Of a stretch of 64,000 nucleotides of DNA, positions 1,316-45,883 are shown one piece after another. How positions within the stretch are numbered: the first letter of the stretch is position 1; every line of letters begins with the position of its first letter. Made by a program: the position numbers and the translations under genes. The notes under the pieces are model-generated. The model made no database searches, was not told where the DNA came from, and worked only from the letters and a program-made list of their open reading frames with translations. The stretch is taken from assembly GCF_003018235.1 (NCBI RefSeq), contig NZ_CP027439.1. One strand, given 5' to 3'. This DNA is from Escherichia coli. Lineage in GTDB: Bacteria; Pseudomonadota; Gammaproteobacteria; Enterobacterales; Enterobacteriaceae.

Positions 1316-1879
1316 ATGCACAGTCAGTTAAAAGAACGTATCCGGCTGATGCGCGCAAGGCTGGATAACGCCGCGCCGGTTGCTGAAATCCGGGCTGAAT
1401 CTCAGCTTTTTGTGACTCCTGCCCCGGTCTGTGATCGCCTGGTGACGCTGGCGGAGATCAGCAACCGTGATCACATTCTGGAACCCTCTGCCGGCACCGG
1501 GGCCATACTGCGGGCGATTCGGGATACCGCGCCGGGGGCCATGTGTGATGCGGTGGAAATCAACAGCGGGCTGGTCCGGTATCTGCGGGAAAATTTTAAC
1601 GGTGTCAGGGTTCAGTGTGGCGACTTCATGGAATGGCAGCCGGTGCAGTATTACAGCCGGGTTATCATGAATCCGCCGTTCAGCCACGGGCAGGATATCC
1701 GGCATATCCTGCGGGCCTTTTCCCTGTTGCGTCCGGGTGGCGTGCTGGTTGCCGTCTGTCTGAACGGGCCGCGCCAGCAGGAGAAGCTGTTACCGTTTTC
1801 TGACGTCCGCGAGGAGCTGCCACGCGGCACGTTTGCTTATACCGATGTTCCGACGATGATTATTCGTCTGCGTGCCTGA
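1316..1879 (+). CDS. Orphan DNA methyltransferase (N6-adenine type)
   Basis: 187-aa ORF with AdoMet-binding motif EPSAGTGA and catalytic NPPF motif; no adjacent restriction endonuclease gene. Confidence 0.75.
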   Translation: MHSQLKERIRLMRARLDNAAPVAEIRAESQLFVTPAPVCDRLVTLAEISNRDHILEPSAGTGAILRAIRDTAPGAMCDAVEINSGLVRYLRENFNGVRVQCGDFMEWQPVQYYSRVIMNPPFSHGQDIRHILRAFSLLRPGGVLVAVCLNGPRQQEKLLPFSDVREELPRGTFAYTDVPTMIIRLRA

Positions 1880-2060
1880 TGACTCCGGGCAGGCGGGAGG
1901 ACAAATGCCCGTCTGCCCGCGCCGGGAAAAGACCGCGCGCCGGTGGCGCTGAAAGGGGCCGCGCTCACGCGCCGCCCCTTACATTACGCGGACATTCTGC
2001 TGTGGGCTTCTGTCTTTTCAGACCTGTCATTTGTCTGTTACTGATGATGTTGTTGTTCCT

Positions 2061-2108
2061 GCTACTGCTACTGCTACTGCTACTGCTACTGCTACTGCTA
2101 CTGCTACT
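2061..2108. repeat. Hexanucleotide microsatellite (GCTACT)x8
   Basis: Eight perfect tandem copies read directly from the sequence; preceded by TGATGA/TGTTGT triplet repeats. Confidence 0.9.
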
Positions 2109-2109
2109 G

Positions 2110-2700
2110 TTCTTCTTTTTTCTGCTGTTCTGATTACTGCCTGTTTTGTTGTTCTCCTGCTTATGCCTTTTCCGGGCGTCCCCCTGGCGGGGCGGGCTGT
2201 CGTGAACGGAGCCAGCGAAGCTGTCTCCGCCCTGGCGGGCTTCCATCCCTGACGCGAAACCCCGGGCTTGCAGCGACCGTTCCGGTCGCGCCGCCTCTGT
2301 CGCGCCGTGGCCTGCGCTCCCGGCATCCCGGCAAAAGGCCGCCGGGATGTAAGGGGCAACGCCGTTTCGCAAACCGCGCTTCACGTCGTTGCGGCGGGTC
2401 CCTGTCCGTTGTTGTGTCCGGTGCCATTCACCTGTTTAAGCCCCTGTCGCCGGGGGCTGATACAGCCACAACCGTCTCCGCCAGTCCAGGGGTGAAATGT
2501 ACATCCCGCAAAACTTTTTGCCCAAAAGCAGGCAAAAACTTTTGCGGTCTGCCCCCGGACAGTCGTTTCCGGCCGTGGCAGTGATGCCCCTTGCGGCGAA
2601 GGTTCTCAAAAAGGTGATGGTGAATACCGGAGGGAACAAAAGGCAGGTCCCCGCAAAACGTCAAAACCGCGGCTCCCGAAACTCAAAAGATGATGGGGGC
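2110..2700 (+). promoter_or_regulatory. Frpo/ssi-like structured repeat, copy A (candidate single-strand promoter) upstream of ssb
   Basis: About 600 bp of GC-rich, hairpin-dense non-coding DNA ending just before the ssb RBS; paralogous to 7480..8125. Contains hairpin 2506..2547 (ccgcaaaactttttgcc/ggcaaaaacttttgcgg). Confidence 0.5.
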
Positions 2701-2728
2701 TGAAAACATCAACAGAAGGAGGCACATC

Positions 2729-3558
<830 letters not shown>

Positions 3559-6785: not shown

Positions 6786-6929
6786 TGCGGCAACAATCAC
6801 ACAGATTACCCGTAAACAGCCTGAATGAGCGGGTTATTTTCAGGAAAAGTGAGTGTGGTCAGCGTGCAGGGATATGGGCTATGATGTGCCCGGCGCTTGA
6901 GGCTTTCTGCCTCATGACGTGAAGGTGGT

Positions 6930-7010
6930 TTGTTGCCGTGTTGTGTGGCAGAAAGAAGATAGCCCCGTAGTAAGTTAATTTTCATTAACCACCACGAGGC
7001 ATCCCTATGT
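6930..7010 (-). ncRNA. sok: Sok/FlmB-like antisense RNA of the hok-type killer locus (approximate position)
   Basis: Placed from the hok/sok paradigm: antisense to the leader and mok start upstream of hok. No promoter or ends were mapped. Confidence 0.3.
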
Positions 7011-7219
7011 CTAGTCCACATCAGGATAGCCTCTTACCGCGCTTTGCGCAAGGAGAAGAAGGCCATGAAACTACCACGAAGTTCCCTTGTCTGGTGTGTG
7101 TTGATCGTGTGTCTCACACTGTTGATATTCACTTATCTGACACGAAAATCGCTGTGCGAGATTCGTTACAGAGACGGACACAGGGAGGTGGCGGCTTTCA
7201 TGGCTTACGAATCCGGTAA
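7007..7219 (+). CDS. mok: Mok/FlmC-like overlapping reading frame (modulation of killing)
   Basis: 70-aa ORF overlapping hok in a different frame, as in hok/sok and flm loci. Confidence 0.6.
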
Positions 7220-7479: not shown

Positions 7480-8125
7480 ATTCTCTTTTTCTTCCTGCTC
7501 TGATTCTGACTACTGCAGTGTTGTCCTGTCTGCTAGGCGCACCTTCGGCTCCCGGCTGCCTGGCGGCATCCGGTCGTCAGGCCCGACTCCGACAGGCAGC
7601 TGCTGGCGCACCTGCCAGTCTCCGCCGAACCCGCTGGCGCGGTTTCGGGCTGTCGCTACGGTCCGATGCGTGAAAACCACAGGCTTGCAGCGACCGTTCC
7701 GGTCGCGCCGCCTCTGTCGCGCCGTAGCCTGCGCTCCCGGCATCCCGGCAAAAGGCCGCCGGGATGTAAGGGGCAACGCCGTTTCGCAAACCGCGCTTCA
7801 CGTCGTTGCGGCGGGTCCCTGCCCGTTGTTGTGTCCGGTGCCATTCACCTGTTTAAGCCCCTGTCGCCGGGGGCTGATACAGCCACAACCTGCCGCACTG
7901 ACTGTCCAGGGTAAATGAACAGCCCACAAAATTTTTTACCCAAAACCCGGTAAAAAATTTTGCGTTCTGCCCAGGACAGGTGCGTCAGGCCGTGGCAGTG
8001 ATGCCCCTTGCGGCGAAGGTTCTCAAACAGGTGATGGTTAATACCGGAGGGAACAAAAGGCAGGTCCCCGCAAAACGTCAAAACCGCGGCTCCCGAAACT
8101 CAACAGATGATGGGGGCTGAAAACC
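7480..8125 (+). promoter_or_regulatory. Frpo/ssi-like structured repeat, copy B, upstream of the orf95-like gene
   Basis: Paralogue of 2110..2700 with long identical blocks (7683..7897, 7985..8125). Hairpin 7925..7964 (cacaaaattttttacc/ggtaaaaaattttgcg) carries compensatory changes relative to copy A. Confidence 0.5.
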
Positions 8126-8137
8126 AGAGAAAGCAGG

Positions 8138-8425
8138 ATGAGTACCCGAAATATCCACGTTAACACCGCGTCGTACACGCTTCTTGTTGCCGGGAAGAAA
8201 AAAAACACCGGGGAAGAGTGGGACGTCCTGGAATTCAGCAGCCTGACTGAGCTGAAAAAATATCGCAAAAGCCACCCGGAAAAGATGGCCTTCAGCTATA
8301 GCTACGCGCTCAGCCAGGGTGTGGATACGCAGTTCCGCCATATCAACATTGCGGAAGCTGATCACTTCAAACAGTTCCTGCGTCAGATTAAGCGTGCCGG
8401 CCTCGATATCCGGGCGATCTGCTGA
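8138..8425 (+). CDS. Leading-region protein, orf95-like
   Basis: 95-aa ORF directly downstream of Frpo-like copy B. Confidence 0.6.
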   Translation: MSTRNIHVNTASYTLLVAGKKKNTGEEWDVLEFSSLTELKKYRKSHPEKMAFSYSYALSQGVDTQFRHINIAEADHFKQFLRQIKRAGLDIRAIC

Positions 8426-8542
8426 CCGGATGTGATGAATATCCCTCCTGATTGTTGCAATGTTGTTAATGGAGAACGGGGGGATGATATTAAGCGGAAA
8501 AATTTTTTATTAAATTTATTCTTTCATAAAGGAGTAGCTGTT

Positions 8543-9364
8543 ATGCGATTAGCTTCCCGTTTTGGTCGGTATAATTCCATCCGCCGTGAACGTCCTTTAA
8601 CGGATGATGAATTAATGCAGTTCGTGCCTTCGGTATTTTCCGGTGATAAACATGAGTCCCGGAGTGAACGTTATACGTATATTCCAACAATCAATATCAT
8701 CAATAAGTTACGTGATGAAGGTTTCCAGCCATTCTTTGCCTGTCAGAGTCGGGTTCGTGATTTGGGGCGTCGGGAATACAGTAAATATATGTTACGTCTT
8801 CGTAGGGAAGGGCATATTAACGGGCAGGAAGTTCCTGAAATTATCCTGCTTAATTCACATGATGGTTCATCCAGTTATCAGATGATCCCGGGAATTTTTC
8901 GTTTTGTCTGCACAAATGGCCTGGTGTGCGGAAATAATTTTGGCGAAATCCGCGTTCCACATAAAGGTGATATTGTCGGGCAGGTTATCGAGGGAGCGTA
9001 TGAAGTGCTCGGTGTCTTTGATAAGGTCACTGATAATATGGAGGCAATGAAAGAAATTCATCTTAACAGTGACGAGCAACATTTATTTGGCAGAGCTGCC
9101 CTGATGGTCAGGTATGAAGATGAAAATAAAACGCCGGTGACGCCTGAACAGATAATTACTCCCCGTCGTCGGGAGGATAAACAGAACGATCTCTGGACAA
9201 CCTGGCAGCGGGTTCAGGAGAATATGATAAAAGGTGGATTATCGGGGCGAAGTGCCTCCGGGAAAAATACCAGGACAAGAGCCATTACAGGTATTGATGG
9301 TGATATAAGAATCAACAAAGCATTATGGATGATTGCCGAACAGTTCAGGGAGTGGAAGTCATGA
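8543..9364 (+). CDS. Leading-region protein, orf273-like (DUF932-type)
   Basis: 273-aa product from internal start MRLASRFGRY; size and position match the F-like orf273. Confidence 0.6.
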   Translation: MRLASRFGRYNSIRRERPLTDDELMQFVPSVFSGDKHESRSERYTYIPTINIINKLRDEGFQPFFACQSRVRDLGRREYSKYMLRLRREGHINGQEVPEIILLNSHDGSSSYQMIPGIFRFVCTNGLVCGNNFGEIRVPHKGDIVGQVIEGAYEVLGVFDKVTDNMEAMKEIHLNSDEQHLFGRAALMVRYEDENKTPVTPEQIITPRRREDKQNDLWTTWQRVQENMIKGGLSGRSASGKNTRTRAITGIDGDIRINKALWMIAEQFREWKS

Positions 9365-10539: not shown

Positions 10540-10923
10540 ATGGCTAAGGTGAACCTGTATATCAGCAATGATGCTTATGAAAAAATAAATGCGATTATTG
10601 AGAAGCGTCGACAGGAAGGGGCAAGGGAAAAAGATATCAGTTTTTCAGCAACAGCTTCAATGCTTCTTGAACTGGGGCTTCGTGTACATGAGGCTCAGAT
10701 GGAGCGTAAAGAGTCTGCATTTAATCAGACTGAGTTTAATAAATTGCTTCTTGAATGCGTTGTAAAAACACAATCATCAGTAGCGAAAATTTTGGGTATT
10801 GAGTCTCTCAGTCCTCATGTCTCCGGAAATCCAAAGTTTGAATATGCCAATATGGTTGAAGATATCAGGGAGAAGGTATCATCTGAGATGGAGCGATTTT
10901 TTCCAAAAAATGATGATGAATAA
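10540..10923 (+). CDS. traM: Relaxosome accessory protein TraM
   Basis: 127 aa, MAKVNLYISNDAYEKINAIIEKRRQEGAREKDISFSATASMLLELGLRV. Confidence 0.93.
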   Translation: MAKVNLYISNDAYEKINAIIEKRRQEGAREKDISFSATASMLLELGLRVHEAQMERKESAFNQTEFNKLLLECVVKTQSSVAKILGIESLSPHVSGNPKFEYANMVEDIREKVSSEMERFFPKNDDE

Positions 10924-11039
10924 AAGAAATTTGACTTCGTTCAAATATCAGAGTTTTTATGATTTAAAAGGGTGACAGTACGAAAGATAATTAGTATATT
11001 AATTACGTGGTTAATGCCACGTTAAAATTTGAATTTGAA

Positions 11040-11115
11040 AATCGCCGATGCAGGGAGTTCACGTCTCCCTGCATCGACTGTCCATAGAATCCTTTGTGAG
11101 GAGGTTCCTATGTAT
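11040..11115 (-). ncRNA. finP: FinP-like antisense RNA opposite the traJ leader (approximate)
   Basis: Stem-loop GATGCAGGGAG...CTCCCTGCATC (11047..11075) plus a second stem spanning the traJ RBS and start; position follows the FinOP paradigm. Ends not mapped. Confidence 0.4.
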
Positions 11116-11799
11116 CCGATGGATCGTATTCAACAAAAACATGCTCGTCAAATAGATCTGCTGGAAAATCTGACGGCAGTTATTCAGGATTATCCAAATC
11201 CAGCCTGTATCAGGGACGAAACTGGAAAATTTATTTTTTGCAATACGCTGTTTCATGAGTCATTTCTTACACAAGATCAAAGTGCTGAAAAATGGCTTCT
11301 GTCGCAGAGAGATTTTTGTGAATTGATCTCTGTCACAGAGATGGAAGCATACAGGAATGAGCATACGCATCTTAATCTTGTAGAGGATGTTTTTATTCAG
11401 AACAGATTCTGGACAATATCTATTCAGTCATTTCTTAATGGACACAGAAATATCATTCTGTGGCAATTTTATGATGCTGCTCATGTTCGTCATAAAGACA
11501 GTTATAATCAAAAAACGATTGTCAGTGATGATATCAGAAATATAATCAGAAGAATGAGTGATGATTCTTCTGTATCATCATATGTAAATGATGTCTTTTA
11601 CTTATATAGCACCGGAATCAGTCATAATGCTATAGCAAGAATATTAAACATATCCATCTCCACATCAAAGAAACACGCGTCTCTGATATGCGACTACTTC
11701 TCTGTTTCTAATAAAGATGAGTTAATCATCTTACTCTACAATAAAAAGTTTATTCATTATTTGTACGAGAAGGCTATGTGTATCATAAATACGCGTTAA
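11110..11799 (+). CDS. traJ: Transfer operon activator TraJ
   Basis: 229 aa from ATG at 11110 with RBS GAGGAGG; lies between traM and traY. Confidence 0.8.
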   Translation: MYPMDRIQQKHARQIDLLENLTAVIQDYPNPACIRDETGKFIFCNTLFHESFLTQDQSAEKWLLSQRDFCELISVTEMEAYRNEHTHLNLVEDVFIQNRFWTISIQSFLNGHRNIILWQFYDAAHVRHKDSYNQKTIVSDDIRNIIRRMSDDSSVSSYVNDVFYLYSTGISHNAIARILNISISTSKKHASLICDYFSVSNKDELIILLYNKKFIHYLYEKAMCIINTR

Positions 11800-13599: not shown

Positions 13600-14314
13600 T
13601 ACAGCAATAATATTCGGCGGCCTGTTTTTTTCCTGCAGCGTGATGGCCGGAGCCGGTACGCTGGCACCCACCGTGGTGCCAATGGTGAACGGTGGTCAGG
13701 CCAGTATTGCCATCAGCAATACCAGCCCGAATCTGTTTACCGTTCCCGGTGACCGGATTATCGCCGTGAACAGTCTGGATGGTGCCCTGACCAGTAATGA
13801 GCAGACCGCCTCCGGCGGTGTGGTGGTTGCCACCGTCAACAAAAAGCCCTTTACGTTCATTCTGGAAACAGAACGTGGTCTGAATCTTTCCATTCAGGCC
13901 GTTCCCCGTGAAGGCGCGGGGCGTACCATTCAGCTGGTCAGTGACCTGCGCGGAACCGGAGAAGAAGCCGGTACGTGGGAAACGTCCACGCCTTACGAAT
14001 CCCTGCTTGTGACCATCAGCCAGGCCGTCCGTGGCGGAAAATTACCCGCAGGCTGGTATCAGGTCCCGGTGACAAAGGAAACCCTGCAGGCCCCGGCGGG
14101 GCTGTCTTCAGTGGCAGATGCCGTATGGACGGGGAATCACCTGAAGATGGTCCGCTTTGCCGTGGAAAATAAAACGCTGTCTGCCCTGAATATCCGGGAA
14201 AGTGACTTCTGGCAGCCGGGAACCCGTGCCGTGATGTTCAGCCAGCCTGCCAGCCAGTTACTGGCAGGTGCGCGCATGGATGTGTATGTCATCCGTGACG
14301 GGGAGGGCAACTGA
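13586..14314 (+). CDS. traK: Secretin-like T4SS protein TraK
   Basis: 242 aa, [21 protein letters not shown] signal peptide. Confidence 0.9.
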
Positions 14315-15741
14315 TGGCCAGTATCAATACCATTGTGAAACGCAAGCAGTACCTGTGGCTGGGGATTGTGGTTGTCGGTACAGCCTCCGCGATTGGTGGG
14401 GCACTGTATCTGTCTGATGTGGACATGTCCGGTAACGGTGAAACCGTGGCTGAACAGGAGCCTGTGCCGGATATGACCGGTGTGGTGGATACGACCTTTG
14501 ATGACAAGGTGCGTCAGCATGCCACCACAGAGATGCAGGTGACGGCAGCGCAGATGCAGAAGCAGTATGAGGAAATCCGTCGTGAGCTGGATGTTCTGAA
14601 CAAACAGCGCGGTGATGACCAGCGTCGTATTGAAAAGCTGGGACAGGACAATGCCGCCCTGGCAGAGCAGGTAAAAGCCCTGGGTGCTAATCCCGTCACG
14701 GCGACCGGTGAGCCTGTACCGCAGATGCCTGCCTCACCGCCCGGCCCGGAAGGCGAACCACAGCCAGGAAACACACCCGTATCTTTCCCGCCGCAGGGCA
14801 GCGTTGCTGTTCCACCGCCGACGGCGTTTTATCCCGGGAATGGTGTCACGCCACCACCACAGGTGACGTACCAGTCTGTGCCGGTGCCTAACCGGATACA
14901 GCGTAAGGTGTTTACCCGTAATGAGGGAAAACAGGGACCCTCGCTGCCGTACATTCCGTCAGGAAGTTTTGCGAAAGCCATGCTGATTGAAGGGGCGGAT
15001 GCCAATGCCTCTGTCACTGGTAATGAATCCACGGTGCCGATGCAGCTGCGTATCACCGGCCTGGTGGAAATGCCGAACAGCAAAACGTATGACGCAAAGG
15101 GATGTTTTGTGGGTCTGGAAGCCTGGGGGGATGTCTCCAGTGAGCGTGCCATTGTACGTACCCGCAATATCAGCTGCCTGAAGGACGGCAAAACCATTGA
15201 TATGCCGATTAAGGGGCATGTCAGCTTCCGGGGTAAAAACGGTATTAAGGGCGAAGTGGTGATGCGTAACGGCAAAATCCTCGGCTGGGCATGGGGCGCG
15301 GGATTTGTTGACGGTATCGGTCAGGGAATGGAGCGTGCTTCCCAGCCGGCTGTCGGGCTGGGTGCCACTGCTGCTTACGGGGCCGGCGATGTCCTTAAAA
15401 TGGGTATCGGTGGCGGCGCATCGAAAGCCGCACAGACGCTCAGTGACTACTACATCAAACGTGCCGAACAGTATCACCCGGTGATACCGATTGGTGCGGG
15501 CAACGAAGTGACCGTGGTGTTCCAGGACGGCTTCCAGCTGAAAACCGTGGAAGAGATGGCGCTGGAGCGCACGCAGAACAGAGCGGAAGAAGATAATCCG
15601 GAAAGTCCGGTTCCTGTTCCGCCATCAGCTGAAAGTCATCTTAACGGCTTTAATACTGACCAGATGCTGAAGCAGCTGGGCAACCTGAATCCGCAGCAGT
15701 TTATGTCCGGCAGCCAGGGAGGAGGCAACGATGGCAAATAA
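14314..15741 (+). CDS. traB: T4SS core protein TraB (VirB10-like)
   Basis: 475 aa with coiled-coil and Pro-rich region; start overlaps the traK stop. Confidence 0.9.
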   Translation: MASINTIVKRKQYLWLGIVVVGTASAIGGALYLSDVDMSGNGETVAEQEPVPDMTGVVDTTFDDKVRQHATTEMQVTAAQMQKQYEEIRRELDVLNKQRGDDQRRIEKLGQDNAALAEQVKALGANPVTATGEPVPQMPASPPGPEGEPQPGNTPVSFPPQGSVAVPPPTAFYPGNGVTPPPQVTYQSVPVPNRIQRKVFTRNEGKQGPSLPYIPSGSFAKAMLIEGADANASVTGNESTVPMQLRITGLVEMPNSKTYDAKGCFVGLEAWGDVSSERAIVRTRNISCLKDGKTIDMPIKGHVSFRGKNGIKGEVVMRNGKILGWAWGAGFVDGIGQGMERASQPAVGLGATAAYGAGDVLKMGIGGGASKAAQTLSDYYIKRAEQYHPVIPIGAGNEVTVVFQDGFQLKTVEEMALERTQNRAEEDNPESPVPVPPSAESHLNGFNTDQMLKQLGNLNPQQFMSGSQGGGNDGK

Positions 15742-16318
15742 TATGTCGTCCCGTCAGGCGTGCCATGCCGCCCGGTATGTTGTCGCCCGGGTTCTGCGAG
15801 GACTGTTCTGGTGTCTGAAATACGCCGTCATTCTGCCACTGGCCACAATGGCCCTGATGGCTCTGTTTGTTTTATGGAAGGACAACACCACGCCGGGAAA
15901 ATTGCTGGTTCAGGAGATCGAGTTTGTAAGGGGCAGAACGCCAGCGGGGTTATATCCGGTCCGATACTGCTCGAACAGTTTTGGTTCCGATTTAGCGATG
16001 CCTCCGTCTGTAACGTGCGGTTTTCGCCGGGGGGATGCTGCAGAATATGCCAGGGAGACTGACCGGTCACTGATGCAACTGTTCACCGCATTATGGGCAA
16101 CGCTGGCACTGATGTATGTCTCGCTGGCGGTGATCTCCGGAAAATGTCCGATGCGACCCGGAAAAATGAAATGTGTCCGGGTGGTAACCGCAGATGAACA
16201 TCTGAAGGAAGTTCTTACGGAAGATGCTTCCCTGCCGGAAAAAATCAGGAAATGGCCTGTTTATCTTCCTGATGACAGAACAAACAGAAACAACGGAGAT
16301 AAAAATGAACATGCGTAA
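15731..16318 (+). CDS. traP: TraP
   Basis: 195-aa membrane protein in the conserved position. Confidence 0.8.
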   Translation: MANNMSSRQACHAARYVVARVLRGLFWCLKYAVILPLATMALMALFVLWKDNTTPGKLLVQEIEFVRGRTPAGLYPVRYCSNSFGSDLAMPPSVTCGFRRGDAAEYARETDRSLMQLFTALWATLALMYVSLAVISGKCPMRPGKMKCVRVVTADEHLKEVLTEDASLPEKIRKWPVYLPDDRTNRNNGDKNEHA

Positions 16319-16625
16319 TATTAATGTTATTACAGCCCTCTCTGTGCCGGGTAAAACCGTGTCAGATGATTTTATTCATGCTGTTCTCAGTAACTGCGCC
16401 ACAAGAATCGTACTTCCTGCACCGGAGAAATTCGGTTCTGAGTCATTGCCGCACAATTTTAATATGGCTGCTGTCGGTGTGATGAAGAAGGGTATGTCGA
16501 TGAGCTTATTTTCTTCTCCGGGGCATATTGTGGTTGCCGGACAATCCGGTGACGGAAAATCTGTTCCGGTGAAAGAACTAATCGACAGAATTATTCAGAA
16601 ATATAAGGAACCCTTCGATGAATAA
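16305..16625 (+). CDS. trbD: TrbD
   Basis: ORF from internal ATG 16305 (GGAG RBS) overlapping the traP 3' end; position-based call. Confidence 0.6.
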   Translation: MNMRNINVITALSVPGKTVSDDFIHAVLSNCATRIVLPAPEKFGSESLPHNFNMAAVGVMKKGMSMSLFSSPGHIVVAGQSGDGKSVPVKELIDRIIQKYKEPFDE

Positions 16626-16869
16626 GCTGGTTTCTGATGGCAGCGTCAAAAAAATAAATTATCCGGTGCTGTATGAGTCCGTAATAACACCTCCGTTATG
16701 TGAAGTCAGTGCACCAGAACCTGATGCGGGTGGGAAACGCATTGTGGCATATGTTTATAAATCATCACGGAATACGGTTTTTGAAAATCCTGACATTGTA
16801 AAAACCTGTACGGTCAGGGATTTGAAGAATGATTTTGTGAACTGCGATGAGAAAGGTGAGGGACAATGA
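16618..16869 (+). CDS. trbG: TrbG
   Basis: 83 aa, conserved position. Confidence 0.7.
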   Translation: MNKLVSDGSVKKINYPVLYESVITPPLCEVSAPEPDAGGKRIVAYVYKSSRNTVFENPDIVKTCTVRDLKNDFVNCDEKGEGQ

Positions 16870-17381
16870 AACAGATTTCTTTATTTATTCCTCTGCTGGG
16901 GACCTTATTACTTTCCGGCTGTGCCGGAACCAGTACGGAATTTGAGTGTAACGCCACCACATCCGATACCTGTATGACGATGGAGCAGGCCAATGAGAAG
17001 GCCAAAAAACTGGAGCAGTCCTCAGAAGCAAAGCCGGTTGCGGCATCACTGCCGCGCCTGGCTGAAGGGAACTTCCGGACAATGCCGGTGCAGACCGTCA
17101 CCGCGACCACTCCGTCCGGCAGCGGGCCTGTAGTGACTGCACTTCCGGAGCAGAAACTGCTGGCACCACGCCCGCTGTTTACCGCTGCCCGGGAAGTGAA
17201 AACGGTTGTTCCGGTCAGCTCAGTTGCGCCGGTAACGCCTCCCCGTCCGTTAAGAACGGGTGAGCAGACGGCAGCATTATGGATAGCACCATATATTGAT
17301 AATCAGGATGTTTATCATCAGCCATCCAGTGTGTTTTTTGTTATTAAACCATCTGCGTGGGGAAAACCACGTATTAATTAA
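16866..17381 (+). CDS. traV: Outer-membrane lipoprotein TraV
   Basis: 171 aa with lipobox LLLSGCAG. Confidence 0.9.
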   Translation: MKQISLFIPLLGTLLLSGCAGTSTEFECNATTSDTCMTMEQANEKAKKLEQSSEAKPVAASLPRLAEGNFRTMPVQTVTATTPSGSGPVVTALPEQKLLAPRPLFTAAREVKTVVPVSSVAPVTPPRPLRTGEQTAALWIAPYIDNQDVYHQPSSVFFVIKPSAWGKPRIN

Positions 17382-17515
17382 CTGGCCCTGAAGTTGTATA
17401 TCAGCCGGCAATGCCGGCGGGCTTTCTGTATTCAAAATCTGCCTGTAAAACGAGTGCCCTGTGCGTGAAAAGGGATGGGCGGTAGCGTGTCAGAACATGT
17501 CGGGAGGAATATTCC

Positions 17516-17737
17516 GTGAGTGATGAAGCCGATGAAGCATATTCAGTGACAGAACAGATGACCATGACAGGAATAAACCGGATACGCCAGAAAATAAATG
17601 CTCATGGTATTCCTGTTTATCTCTGTGAAGCATGCGGTAATCCTATTCCGGAAGCCCGGCGGAAAATATTTCCCGGTGTGACGTTATGTGTTGAATGTCA
17701 GGCGGATCAGGAAAGGCAGAGGAAACACTATGCATAA
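17516..17737 (+). CDS. traR: TraR (DksA/TraR-family C4 zinc finger)
   Basis: 73 aa with CEACGNPIP...CVECQ. Confidence 0.88.
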   Translation: MSDEADEAYSVTEQMTMTGINRIRQKINAHGIPVYLCEACGNPIPEARRKIFPGVTLCVECQADQERQRKHYA

Positions 17738-18203
17738 ATCAGAAACTGAAAAAATAGATTCTATCCTGGATGAACATCAACAGATATATCGCAGACATAA
17801 CCGAATAGATAACATCCTGGCGTTTTTTGCGTGTATTGCATGGATTCCCTGTATTATTGCTGCGTTCGGCGTTGATGGTATATATCTGAAAATCCTGTTT
17901 GCGGTCCTTGCCTGCTGTGGTGCGGTATGCTTTTTTATTTTCTTCTTCACCCTCCTGCCGGAATCACTCATGGTCCTCAGCCGTCAGAGCCTGCTTCAGC
18001 TTATGCGTCTGACTGAAGACGTACCGGATGCGAGACAGGAACTGCTTAACCGTCTGCTGTCCGGTAAAAAACTGACTGGTCGGAATGAAAAGGATATCCG
18101 GCGTCTCTGGCAGGATAAAGTGGATGCAATGCAGGAGTCTGCCACCCGTCAGCGTGAACAGGATACCATTCGGAAGTTTGCTGAAGAGAGTAAATCTGAA
18201 TGA
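17730..18203 (+). CDS. Hypothetical membrane protein between traR and traC
   Basis: ORF from MHKSETEKIDS with two predicted transmembrane segments. Confidence 0.55.
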   Translation: MHKSETEKIDSILDEHQQIYRRHNRIDNILAFFACIAWIPCIIAAFGVDGIYLKILFAVLACCGAVCFFIFFFTLLPESLMVLSRQSLLQLMRLTEDVPDARQELLNRLLSGKKLTGRNEKDIRRLWQDKVDAMQESATRQREQDTIRKFAEESKSE

Positions 18204-18282
18204 AAATCTGCTGTGTTTTATAACCTCATAAGTTAACTGAAGGAATATTCAGTGATTAATATTTAACTGGAGGTAATAAAGA

Positions 18283-18417
18283 ATGCATACCTTTATCTTT
18301 CTTGTGCTGATGAAAAATGTTGGCGGTGGTGGTATCTGGAATATTACACCCATGCCAAATACGGATGTATGTGCACAGATCCTTCGGAGAATAGAAGCGC
18401 GTGGAGGCAGGGCTTAG
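18283..18417 (+). CDS. Small ORF (44 aa) with strong RBS
   Basis: GGAGG 11 nt upstream of the ATG; hydrophobic N-terminus MHTFIFLVLM; below the ORF-track size cut-off. Confidence 0.35.
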   Translation: MHTFIFLVLMKNVGGGGIWNITPMPNTDVCAQILRRIEARGGRA

Positions 18418-18527
18418 GAAATTCAGGGGAGTGTATTGAAGTTAAAACAAATGAACCTTTGAACAACGTGATGGAAACACTGAATGGTGATGGGCAATGA
18501 GTGCTTACTGCTTCGAAGGAAAATGAA

Positions 18528-18890
18528 ATGAAGTCGATATATTTAAAATCTGTTCTGGCTTTTATATTTGTTGGCGTTATGGCTATGTTGATATGTGGTC
18601 TTTTTTACAATGATTACCTTGAGCAACAACCTGCAACACCAGAACAACTGACAGAGATTACACAGGATATCCCCTGTGCAGCAGAAGCATTTAAGGAAGC
18701 TATTAAGTCTGACACATCTGATTATCAGCCTGAACCTTTAAGTCTTGGTAAGGCAAAAGAGCTTGCATCAGCGTGTAGAGAAAGAAACGAAATGGCAGAG
18801 GTGAAACGGGTAAGAGAAAATGAGCGCAATAAGATTCGCGAAAAACAAATTCAGGCATTAAATGATGCTCATTCAGTAAAGGAACGTTAA
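18528..18890 (+). CDS. Hypothetical membrane-anchored protein upstream of traC
   Basis: MKSIYLKSVLAFIFVGVMAMLICGLF N-terminal transmembrane anchor. Confidence 0.55.
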   Translation: MKSIYLKSVLAFIFVGVMAMLICGLFYNDYLEQQPATPEQLTEITQDIPCAAEAFKEAIKSDTSDYQPEPLSLGKAKELASACRERNEMAEVKRVRENERNKIREKQIQALNDAHSVKER

Positions 18891-19015
18891 TCCTGGTTTC
18901 CTGTTAAAAGCCTCCATCTCTTATTTGTGCTGTGGTTTCAGGAATGGCACTGCGTGATATATCCACGGCCACAGACTGATATTTTCCTTTTTTAAACGCA
19001 CTAAGGAATACTCAT

Positions 19016-45764: not shown

Positions 45765-45855
45765 CAGGAGCCAGAAAAGTGAAAACCCCGATAATCTTCT
45801 TTAACTTTGGCGAGTGAGAAAGATTATCGGGGCTAACAAGAAACTGCATAGAAGC
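45765..45855 (-). ncRNA. copA: CopA (inc) antisense RNA of the repA1 leader (approximate ends)
   Basis: Long imperfect hairpin 45786..45832 (ccccgataatctt...aagattatcgggg) with a loop containing GCGCCAAAG on the minus strand, matching the CopA/CopT stem-loop II arrangement between copB and tap. Confidence 0.5.
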
Positions 45856-45883
45856 TGTTGCTCTATGCGGGGAGTATAGTTAT

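Follow-up and report, generated by a model that had tools for sequence, protein, structure and literature searches.

The AT-rich palindrome of copy B in the window (the whole 64,000-nt stretch of Escherichia coli DNA that was analysed) is very probably the tip of a long hairpin formed on the transferred strand of a class 1 single-stranded DNA (ssDNA) promoter, with cassette alleles that have been moved by recombination; taken as a whole, this was the best explanation of the data. Copies A and B constitute a direct repeat of ~450 nt, at 2257-2707 and 7674-8124 and 5.4 kb apart, with copy A upstream of ssb and copy B upstream of orf95/ygeA and orf273/ygeB (Table 1). BLAST tied both to published Frpo/ssi sequences. 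Copy B shared 95.3% identity with the ssb-proximal copy of plasmid F and 90.3% with the ygeA-proximal copy, and copy A shared 97.6% with the ygeA-proximal copy and 90.6% with the other F copy. Judged by sequence, copies A and B are recognizable as the two Frpo/ssi class 1 ssDNA promoters of the IncF leading region. Frpo/ssi matches were found in at least 5000 PLSDB plasmid records, at ~15,000-19,000 matching places including self-complementary hits.

The segment surrounding both copies is the leading region of an IncF plasmid, arranged as in F. The list of open reading frames combined with Pfam gave the + strand gene order ssb (2720), a ParB-like gene, psiB, psiA, hok/sok, orf95 and orf273, followed by a lytic transglycosylase gene on the minus strand and then by traM and traJ (10540-11116). 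The genes ssb, psiB, psiA, orf95 and orf273 are all located on the + strand and head to traM/traJ, in the order known from F. Rfam matches in the window comprised the traJ 5'UTR/FinP (11005-11116), sok (6891-7067) and CopA (45777-45866). No Pfam family matched orf95. The mechanical open reading frame of orf273 begins with GTG at 8432, and the ATG at 8543, which has an AAGGAG ribosome-binding site, yields 273 aa. Since the leading-region genes face oriT and the transferred strand is their template, the transferred strand corresponds to the window minus strand. Both copies are therefore placed as Frpo and other class 1 ssDNA promoters are, within a leading region in which the transferred strand templates the downstream genes.

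Table 1. Window coordinates of the two putative ssDNA promoter copies, their predicted structural parts and the adjoining genes.
Feature	Position	Strand	Remarks
Copy A, putative Frpo/ssi class 1 ssDNA promoter	2257-2707	-	position of F Frpo2, upstream of ssb
Tip hairpin, copy A	2506-2547	-	arms 2506-2522 (CCGCAAAACTTTTTGCC) and 2531-2547 (GGCAAAAACTTTTGCGG), loop 2523-2530; central G.G mismatch on transferred strand
Plasmid ssb	2720-3262	+	first gene 3' of copy A; SSB family, E 9.9e-38
Copy B, putative Frpo/ssi class 1 ssDNA promoter	7668-8124	-	position of F Frpo1; direct repeat with copy A
Conserved flanking block	7682-7728	-	small hairpin 7690-7706, GCGACCG TTC CGGTCGC
Main imperfect hairpin	7781-8099	-	319 nt, 123 pairs; transferred strand, DNA fold -139.2 kcal/mol
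Polymorphic tetranucleotide, 3' arm	7875-7878	-	faces invariant CATCACT; ATCA here
Apical cassette (tip, 3'-side bulge, TGTCC/GGACA stem)	7891-7988	-	segment where copies A and B differ
Conserved apical stem, 3'-arm half	7902-7911	-	transferred strand CCCTGGACAG; pairs with 7970-7979
Unpaired 8-nt bulge, 3' side of tip	7912-7919	-	transferred strand TTCATTTA; unpaired in folds
AT-rich tip hairpin, copy B	7924-7965	-	arms 7924-7940 (CCACAAAATTTTTTACC) and 7949-7965 (GGTAAAAAATTTTGCGT), loop 7941-7948
Conserved apical stem, 5'-arm half	7970-7979	-	transferred strand CTGTCCTGGG
Invariant 41-nt block, 5' arm	7988-8028	-	no variation in 28 F-like sequences
orf95 (ygeA homologue)	8138-8425	+	first gene 3' of copy B; same place as F's 95-aa gene
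orf273 (ygeB homologue, DUF932)	8543-9364	+	DUF932, E 3.6e-51

In F, the ygeA/ygeB-proximal copy has been named Frpo1 and the ssb-proximal copy Frpo2, and both are required for early expression in transconjugants, Frpo1 for that of ygeA (Couturier et al. 2023, PMC9849209). As Frpo1 occupies the place of copy B, this supports the proposal of an earlier note on this DNA, made from the letters alone, that a Frpo/ssi-like element drives orf95 and orf273. The same note spoke of a second copy. Its position is that of the original Frpo/ssiD (Masai and Arai 1997, Cell 89:897), the other copy being the Frpo2 of 2023; Frpo (= ssiD) was described in 1997 as a 328-nt ssDNA promoter, a stem-loop with -35 and -10 boxes, and the second F copy was on record from that year. 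Experiments had thus established the element, the existence of two copies and the need for folding beforehand, and this is no new kind of system.

The palindromes quoted in the earlier note were exact in letters and places in both copies, each with an 8-nt loop. Both tips folded far more stably than shuffled sequences did (z -4.4 to -6.2; none of 200 shuffles was their equal), with -13.0 kcal/mol on the transferred strand versus -11.5 kcal/mol on the + strand in copy B, and -18.2 versus -14.7 kcal/mol in copy A. In each copy the tip palindrome lies at the apex of a long hairpin with a z-score of -10.95 in copy B and -6.4 in copy A, and the ~320-nt transferred-strand hairpin characteristic of Frpo and class 1 ssDNA promoters was thus recovered. 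In 28 F-like sequences this hairpin comprised 95 consensus pairs, which were 99.2% paired and of which 7 change on both sides, the consensus structure having been derived from the same alignment that was later used for the pair counts. One-sided changes were mostly G-C to G.T or T-A to T.G, and ~10% of cells in the F-like family were G.T, which corresponds to A.C on the opposite strand.

This asymmetry extended to all types of the element. Representatives of the F-like, IncI, Serratia, insect-gut and Salmonella types were compared, and in 17 of 17 the transferred strand exceeded its complement in stability by 8-21 kcal/mol. On the transferred strand, the main stems contained 105 G.T pairs versus 3 A.C single mismatches, an excess that may stem in part from C-to-T deamination of a strand that spends time single-stranded, as well as G.G 29 times versus C.C once and A.G 45 times versus C.T 13 times. 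All mismatch types found in the tip take the milder form on the transferred strand. Natural variation indicates that the tip is maintained as a hairpin specifically on this strand. The paired fraction of the tip (95.2%, see below) and of the whole hairpin, together with the bias to the transferred strand, uphold the view of the earlier note that the folded single-stranded form is the functional entity; taken together, the comparisons speak strongly for the folded transferred strand as the functional form.

The contrast between copies A and B was less simple than the paired substitutions in the central hairpin that the earlier note had described. From A to B, pair 15 changes from G-C to A-T, the sole strictly compensatory change between the copies. 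At pair 9 both sides change and a mismatch becomes a pair, T-A in place of C.C when read on the + strand and in place of G.G when read on the transferred strand. Pair 3 changes on one side only, G-C being replaced by A.C on the + strand and by a G.T wobble on the transferred one. The outermost tip pair is broken between the copies. Nor is the difference confined to the central hairpin: an apical segment of ~100 nt diverges as a whole (2474-2572 versus 7891-7988; 74% identity) between flanks that are 98.2% and 97.1% identical, and within it the tip is 81% identical and the adjoining stem on either side only 69-70%.

In plasmid F, the two apical alleles occupy swapped positions, the ssb-proximal copy carrying the tip of window copy B and the ygeA-proximal copy, the original Frpo, that of window copy A. 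The alignment of 28 F-like sequences further showed that these elements are a mosaic of alternative segments. The swap of alleles in F implies that the A/B contrast was produced by recombination moving an allelic apical cassette of ~100 nt. As the tip arms lie within ~40 nt, a single recombination event can alter both, and two copies alone cannot show compensation. The compensatory evolution that had been read from the two copies is thus better replaced by cassette exchange: to judge from these alignments, the A/B difference represents two cassette alleles shifted between the copies by recombination, not co-evolution in place.

For a wider structure-aware comparison, the small conserved flanking hairpin ~230 nt from the tip was used as search anchor, which avoids biasing the sampling of tips. 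Anchor scans yielded 13 loci in species-representative genomes and at least 120 loci in metagenomes. The contigs that carried some of the 13 genome loci bore Streptomyces or gut-anaerobe MAG labels. The collection was extended by ColIb-P9, a pSLT-like plasmid, a Klebsiella plasmid, F and the published Frpo/ssi set, and the resulting tip sample contained 156 copies (~40 distinct) from 137 sequence records including the window, plus published sequences. Two old GenBank records of F (D90178 and NC_002483) have odd tip arms, CAAAACATTTTG and CAAAATCTTTG, which were absent from all modern contigs compared. D90178 (ssiD), whose hairpin probably contains a sequencing error, was not used in the tip alignment, the NC_002483 copy entered only the whole-hairpin alignment of F-like sequences, and one contig of 1.3x coverage (L087) was excluded for the same kind of reason.

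In the 17-bp frame of the tip, read on the transferred strand, haplotype H1 (ACGCAAAATTTTTTACC/GGTAAAAAATTTTGTGG; n=61) is that of window copy B, and haplotype H3 (CCGCAAAAGTTTTTGCC/GGCAAAAAGTTTTGCGG; n=23) is that of window copy A with its central G.G. IncI tips had either T.T at pair 14 (n=21) or G.G together with A.G (n=16); "repaired" variants showed A-T at pair 14 in 7 copies and G-C at pair 9 in 5. Among 31 distinct sequences, 10 of 16 tip pairs were invariant, pairs 9, 14 and 15 changed on both sides, and pair 3 alternated only between G-C and G.T. Pairing was kept in 95.2% of cells, compared with 92.9% in shuffles, none of 500 of which reached as high, in a control that ignores the relatedness of the sequences; sliding the partners gave 39-66% (maximum 65.7%). 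As the earlier note had supposed, the tip differences were therefore not random in a wider alignment. The loops varied more than the arms (14 loop variants versus 10 arm haplotypes). Changes in the tip stem appear to be mostly pair-preserving or pair-restoring while the loops drift freely, with only three covarying pairs in few lineages and hence few independent events.

Only two islands of sequence were common to the IncF Frpo and the IncI1 ssi elements, a flanking block at 7660-7730 (87-100% identity) and the tip region at 7911-7985 (73-80%). The arms of IncF and IncI elements are 20-50% identical, yet long hairpins are formed in both. Conservation of "pairing rather than sequence", as the earlier note had put it for the tip, does not describe a stem with 10 of 16 invariant pairs in one of the only two sequence islands; the phrase would suit the long arms better than the tip. 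All types share an apical plan composed of a TGTCCGGGG stem, the tip hairpin, an 8-10-nt bulge on the 3' side with the pattern T..AT.T, and a CCCCTGGACA stem. The bulge pattern is invariant across IncF and IncI types (columns T60, A63, T64 and T66), and the apical stem at 7902-7911 is conserved in IncF, IncI, Serratia and insect-gut types. In one related lineage, the insect-gut type, the AT tip is replaced by a 5-bp GC mini-hairpin (GCGCGG-TTTA-CCGCGT; natural tip allele GCGCGGTTTACCGCG). A capped helix is universal among the types compared, and the A/T tracts are common but can be dispensed with.

A scan of both strands for consensus -35 and -10 hexamers gave no match at the copy B hairpin, and a looser scan returned four weaker competing candidates. 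On the 5' arm, a putative -35 element TTGAGA (+ strand 8021-8026) and a putative -10 element CATCAC (+ strand 7998-8003) are separated by a 17-nt spacing. TTGAGA-17-CATCAC or TTGAGA-18/19-TAAACC recurred in F-like, insect-gut and Serratia types, with the -10 element in an internal loop, and conservation favours this candidate on the 5' arm, in the one form or, in relatives, in the other. ATCACT of the 5' arm was kept in 97 of 98 copies. The tetranucleotide at 7875-7878 on the facing arm was the most polymorphic site of the element (ATCA 51, CTAT 29, CTTT 17, CTCA 2 and CTGT 1). Masai and Arai reportedly found mispairing around the -10 element to be needed, and an invariant 5' arm facing a polymorphic, largely unpaired tetranucleotide fits such a requirement.

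Other candidates were rejected. A promoter on the 3' arm (TGGACA...TATCAG) with the tip as UP element was dropped for its -10 element, which overlaps the most polymorphic site, opposite the invariant 5' arm. TAC-type -10 candidates in IncI were not conserved. TGGGCA-17-TACATT, with its -35 element over the tip loop, scored well in some families. It is implausible, given that loop sequences are hypervariable and that the tip is absent from the insect-gut type. Start sites have been mapped for the ColIb-P9 ssi1-3 homologues and the pESBL class 1 promoters. Coordinates of hexamers or start sites were absent from the legends and supplementary material of Couturier et al. 2023, Samuel et al. 2024 and Wen et al. 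2025.

A promoter proximal to the tip, with the tip arm serving as UP-like A/T tract, would be an alternative. The right arm of the tip, on the transferred strand (AAAAAATTTTG), matches the UP-like motif AAAWWTWTTTT by eye at 9 of 11 positions, and the 8-nt bulge breaks the helix. TTG directly follows the T-tract in most families with an AT tip. The tip-proximal alternative fits the mention of an UP element, which Samuel et al. 2024 (PMC11541004) annotate in Frpo with no coordinates in the accessible text, and the limits of the working Frpo cassette used by these authors. If the promoter of the 5' arm were used instead, RNA polymerase would run toward and around the tip, and the tip would be transcribed.

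By homology to F and ColIb-P9, for which this is described in the literature, the transferred strand (window minus) would fold in the recipient into an imperfect hairpin of ~320 nt, which the host sigma-70 RNA polymerase would take as promoter. Copy B would then give rise to transcription of orf95/ygeA and orf273/ygeB, and copy A to transcription from ssb onward. Frpo transcripts prime complementary-strand synthesis in vivo, and the transcripts predicted here could do the same; second-strand synthesis would remove the hairpin and switch the promoter off. Transcription by sigma-70 RNA polymerase from the single-stranded form only, with early (zygotic) expression that is lost on deletion, has been demonstrated for F Frpo1 and Frpo2 and for the pESBL class 1 promoters, and is expected here by homology. 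Most likely, the tip would serve as a cap that folds fast, nucleating the long hairpin and fixing its register while the strand comes in against SSB. A role in nucleation and register is the most plausible one whether the promoter lies on the 5' arm or proximal to the tip. The conserved A-tract/T-tract duplex probably provides a sequence-specific UP-like contact or an easily melted turning point for RNA polymerase. Against a pure cap role, the A/T tracts of the tip are conserved in sequence, which a cap does not need; against an indispensable AT tip, a related lineage carries the GC mini-hairpin instead.

Folded ssDNA hairpins that act as promoter mimics for sigma-70 RNA polymerase, leading to a primer RNA, are found in the ssoA origins of rolling-circle plasmids and in the minus-strand origin of filamentous phages. 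The sole task of these origins is to prime DNA synthesis; Frpo in addition drives mRNAs that are translated, and we know of no sequence relationship between them and Frpo. In ssoA, a conserved element of the apical loop, CS-6, marks the end of the primer; to our knowledge, no role in primer termination is known for the Frpo apex. The apical cassette is the sole part of the big hairpin common to IncF and IncI elements. It is conceivable, though on balance rather unlikely, that the cassette (AT-tract tip, T..AT.T bulge and TGTCC/GGACA stem) is the recognition or hand-off core of the element and not a passive cap, serving as a fork-junction-like polymerase site or as a primer-RNA end point in the manner of CS-6, and exchanged as a module whose alleles (G.G, G-C or T-A at the centre) would tune promoter strength.

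Known relatives of the window copies agree with them in architecture to varying extents. F Frpo1 and Frpo2 share the leading-region positions, the long transferred-strand hairpin and 90-98% identity, and differ from the window plasmid in the opposite positions of the two apical alleles. The ssi1-ssi3 elements of the IncI1 plasmid ColIb-P9 (Bates et al. 1999; Nasim et al. 2004), assigned to class 1 of Wen et al. 2025 (PMC12672017), have a similar long hairpin, an AT-rich 17-bp tip, a 3'-side bulge and a TGTCC/GGACA stem. The tip region and the flanking 45-nt block are common to both, whereas the long arms are essentially unrelated (20-50% identity) and the ssi tips show, in place of the F states, a mismatch (T.T or A.G) or else A-T at pair 14. 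The Frpo-like candidates of Samuel et al. 2024 (PMC11541004) from Serratia, insect-gut and Salmonella types have homologous arms and apical stem and are located upstream of leading-region genes, with Serratia-type tips that, unlike those of the window, are longer and have a ~20-nt loop. Within the searchable literature, as far as its content was accessible, no sequence-based structural analysis of ssDNA promoters was found, the accessible surveys being BLAST-based.

The paired differences could be a mere by-product of mutation and recombination, arising without any selection for folding by intrastrand template switching in a quasi-palindrome, by which one arm is copied from the other, or by gene conversion between the copies, by which both arms are exchanged together. 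The apical cassette indeed differs as a block, its alleles are swapped in F, and the F-like elements are mosaic. Variants of the "repair" kind recur on different backgrounds, G.G having become G-C on 3 backgrounds (5 copies) and T.T having become A-T in 7 copies, and the loop of the small flanking hairpin exists in both orientations (TTC in 132 copies, GAA in 28), a signature of hairpin flipping. However, templated correction hits both strands equally and offers no account of the 105:3 and 29:1 biases or of the stability advantage in 17 of 17 representatives. It would also erase mismatches, yet G.G persists in at least 6 divergent lineages, and it does not predict that loops vary and stems do not. 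Moreover, mutagenesis ties activity to structure in the accessible parts of the literature. Template switching and gene conversion clearly operate here and explain the origin of the paired differences, but not the strand asymmetry, the persistence of G.G or the contrast between loop and stem; we regard an origin without folding selection as improbable.

It is still less probable, and in our judgement very unlikely, that the palindrome acts in duplex DNA, as a symmetric protein site or cruciform-prone centre, with the ssDNA hairpin being incidental. The A4-5/T5 tracts are conserved in IncF and IncI, and the arms are also near-direct repeats of CAAAA(N)TTTTTG, as a duplex site might require. Yet the strand-asymmetric G.T, G.G and A.G mismatches would be meaningless in a duplex, pairs 9, 14 and 15 change in the inverted-complement and not in the direct-repeat sense, an unrelated GC mini-hairpin substitutes for the tip in one lineage, and the elements are reported in the literature to be silent once double-stranded. 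A start on the 5' arm (candidate TTGAGA-17-CATCAC) would place the tip in the transcript, able to fold there, and the hairpin might then act not in DNA but in RNA of the + sense, where it would stabilize the 5'-UTR or resemble a terminator. The + sense, however, gives A.C and C.C mismatches and a weaker tip hairpin, and the terminator scan detected none at 7924-7965, where the T-run forms part of an AT-rich stem and does not follow it, contrary to an intrinsic terminator; an action in RNA is hardly credible. Chance, meaning an inverted repeat rich in AT whose few differences merely coincide, has a negligible probability. It would be compatible with the few differences between two copies and with nothing more, and is already refuted by tip folds that beat 200 of 200 shuffles, by the recurrence of the same hairpin, with 156 copies among IncF, IncI and related elements, and by the effect of sliding the partners, which lowers pairing from 95% to 39-66%.

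When resistance plasmids enter a new cell, promoters of the Frpo type set the timing of the initial burst of genes for anti-defence, SOS inhibition and establishment. To this the present comparison adds modestly, indicating selection that acts specifically on the transferred strand, a tip that is both a conserved and an exchangeable module, and mismatches that are polymorphic among the elements. The natural tip variants represent ready material for probing the function of the apex.

The two Frpo copies (class 1 single-stranded-DNA promoters; copy A upstream of ssb, copy B upstream of orf95/orf273) differ by an apical cassette of about 100 nt, the segment around the AT-rich tip of the main hairpin. 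In plasmid F (L137; 8175-8622 and 13563-14024), the positions of the cassette alleles are swapped relative to the window, which implies recombination or gene conversion between Frpo copies 5.4 kb apart. Among the matches listed, metagenomic F-like elements are patchworks built from three or more such segments, and alleles of the 5' and 3' arms are sometimes mixed within one element. Variation also affects a tetranucleotide of the 3' arm, which differs strongly between plasmids (ATCA, CTAT, CTTT, CTCA, CTGT). It is located in an internal loop facing the invariant CATCACT and may set the degree of opening of the candidate -10 region.

Features in and beside the two Frpo copies (window positions)
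Feature	Copy B	Copy A	Remarks
(CTG/CTA)n repeat, 12-nt period		2035-2130	immediately upstream of copy A, within small ORF 1879-2133 (+)
Conserved flanking block, 45-nt	7682-7728 (hairpin 7690-7706)	2265-2311	
Second small GC-rich hairpin	7741-7766		CATCCCGGC AAAAGGCC GCCGGGATG; between conserved flanking block and main hairpin
Polymorphic tetranucleotide, 3' arm	7875-7878	near 2458-2461	
Apical cassette	7891-7988	2474-2572	

Conservation of the flanking block between IncF Frpo and the IncI1 ssi counterparts amounts to 87-100%, and the adjoining arms are unrelated. The block contains a 7-bp hairpin (GCGACCG TTC CGGTCGC), whose loop reads TTC in 132 and the reverse complement GAA in 28 of the copies listed; to judge by these two orientations, the hairpin behaves as if it flips. 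The second small hairpin was found in F-like copies and is deleted from the ssi elements of ColIb-P9. Upstream of copy B, the stretch homologous to the repeat region by copy A (about 7480-7510) lacks the (CTG/CTA)n repeat.

A third class 1 copy is present in some IncF plasmids, exemplified by the Klebsiella plasmid pKPC2_090050 (L001 16603-17053). There it is situated at a greater distance from oriT and upstream of two genes, one hypothetical and the other a DUF3560 gene. Since the equivalent position falls directly ahead of the window start, the plasmid under study may also possess a third copy there.

Near-identical F-type Frpo sequences were detected on Streptomyces morookaense contigs (L006, L007) and in metagenome-assembled genomes assigned to Oscillibacter, Erysipelotrichaceae and Collinsella (L008, L009, L011). 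These assignments are to unrelated Gram-positive genomes, and the sequences are likely enterobacterial plasmid DNA that was mis-binned or came in as a contaminant. The older F references D90178 (ssiD) and NC_002483 show the tip arms CAAAACATTTTG, CAAAATCTTTG / GGCAAAGATTTTG (L137 around 13815-13860), which were present in no modern contig among those compared. These unusual arms are probably sequencing errors inside the hairpin, and they are of consequence if the Frpo structure is modelled from those references.
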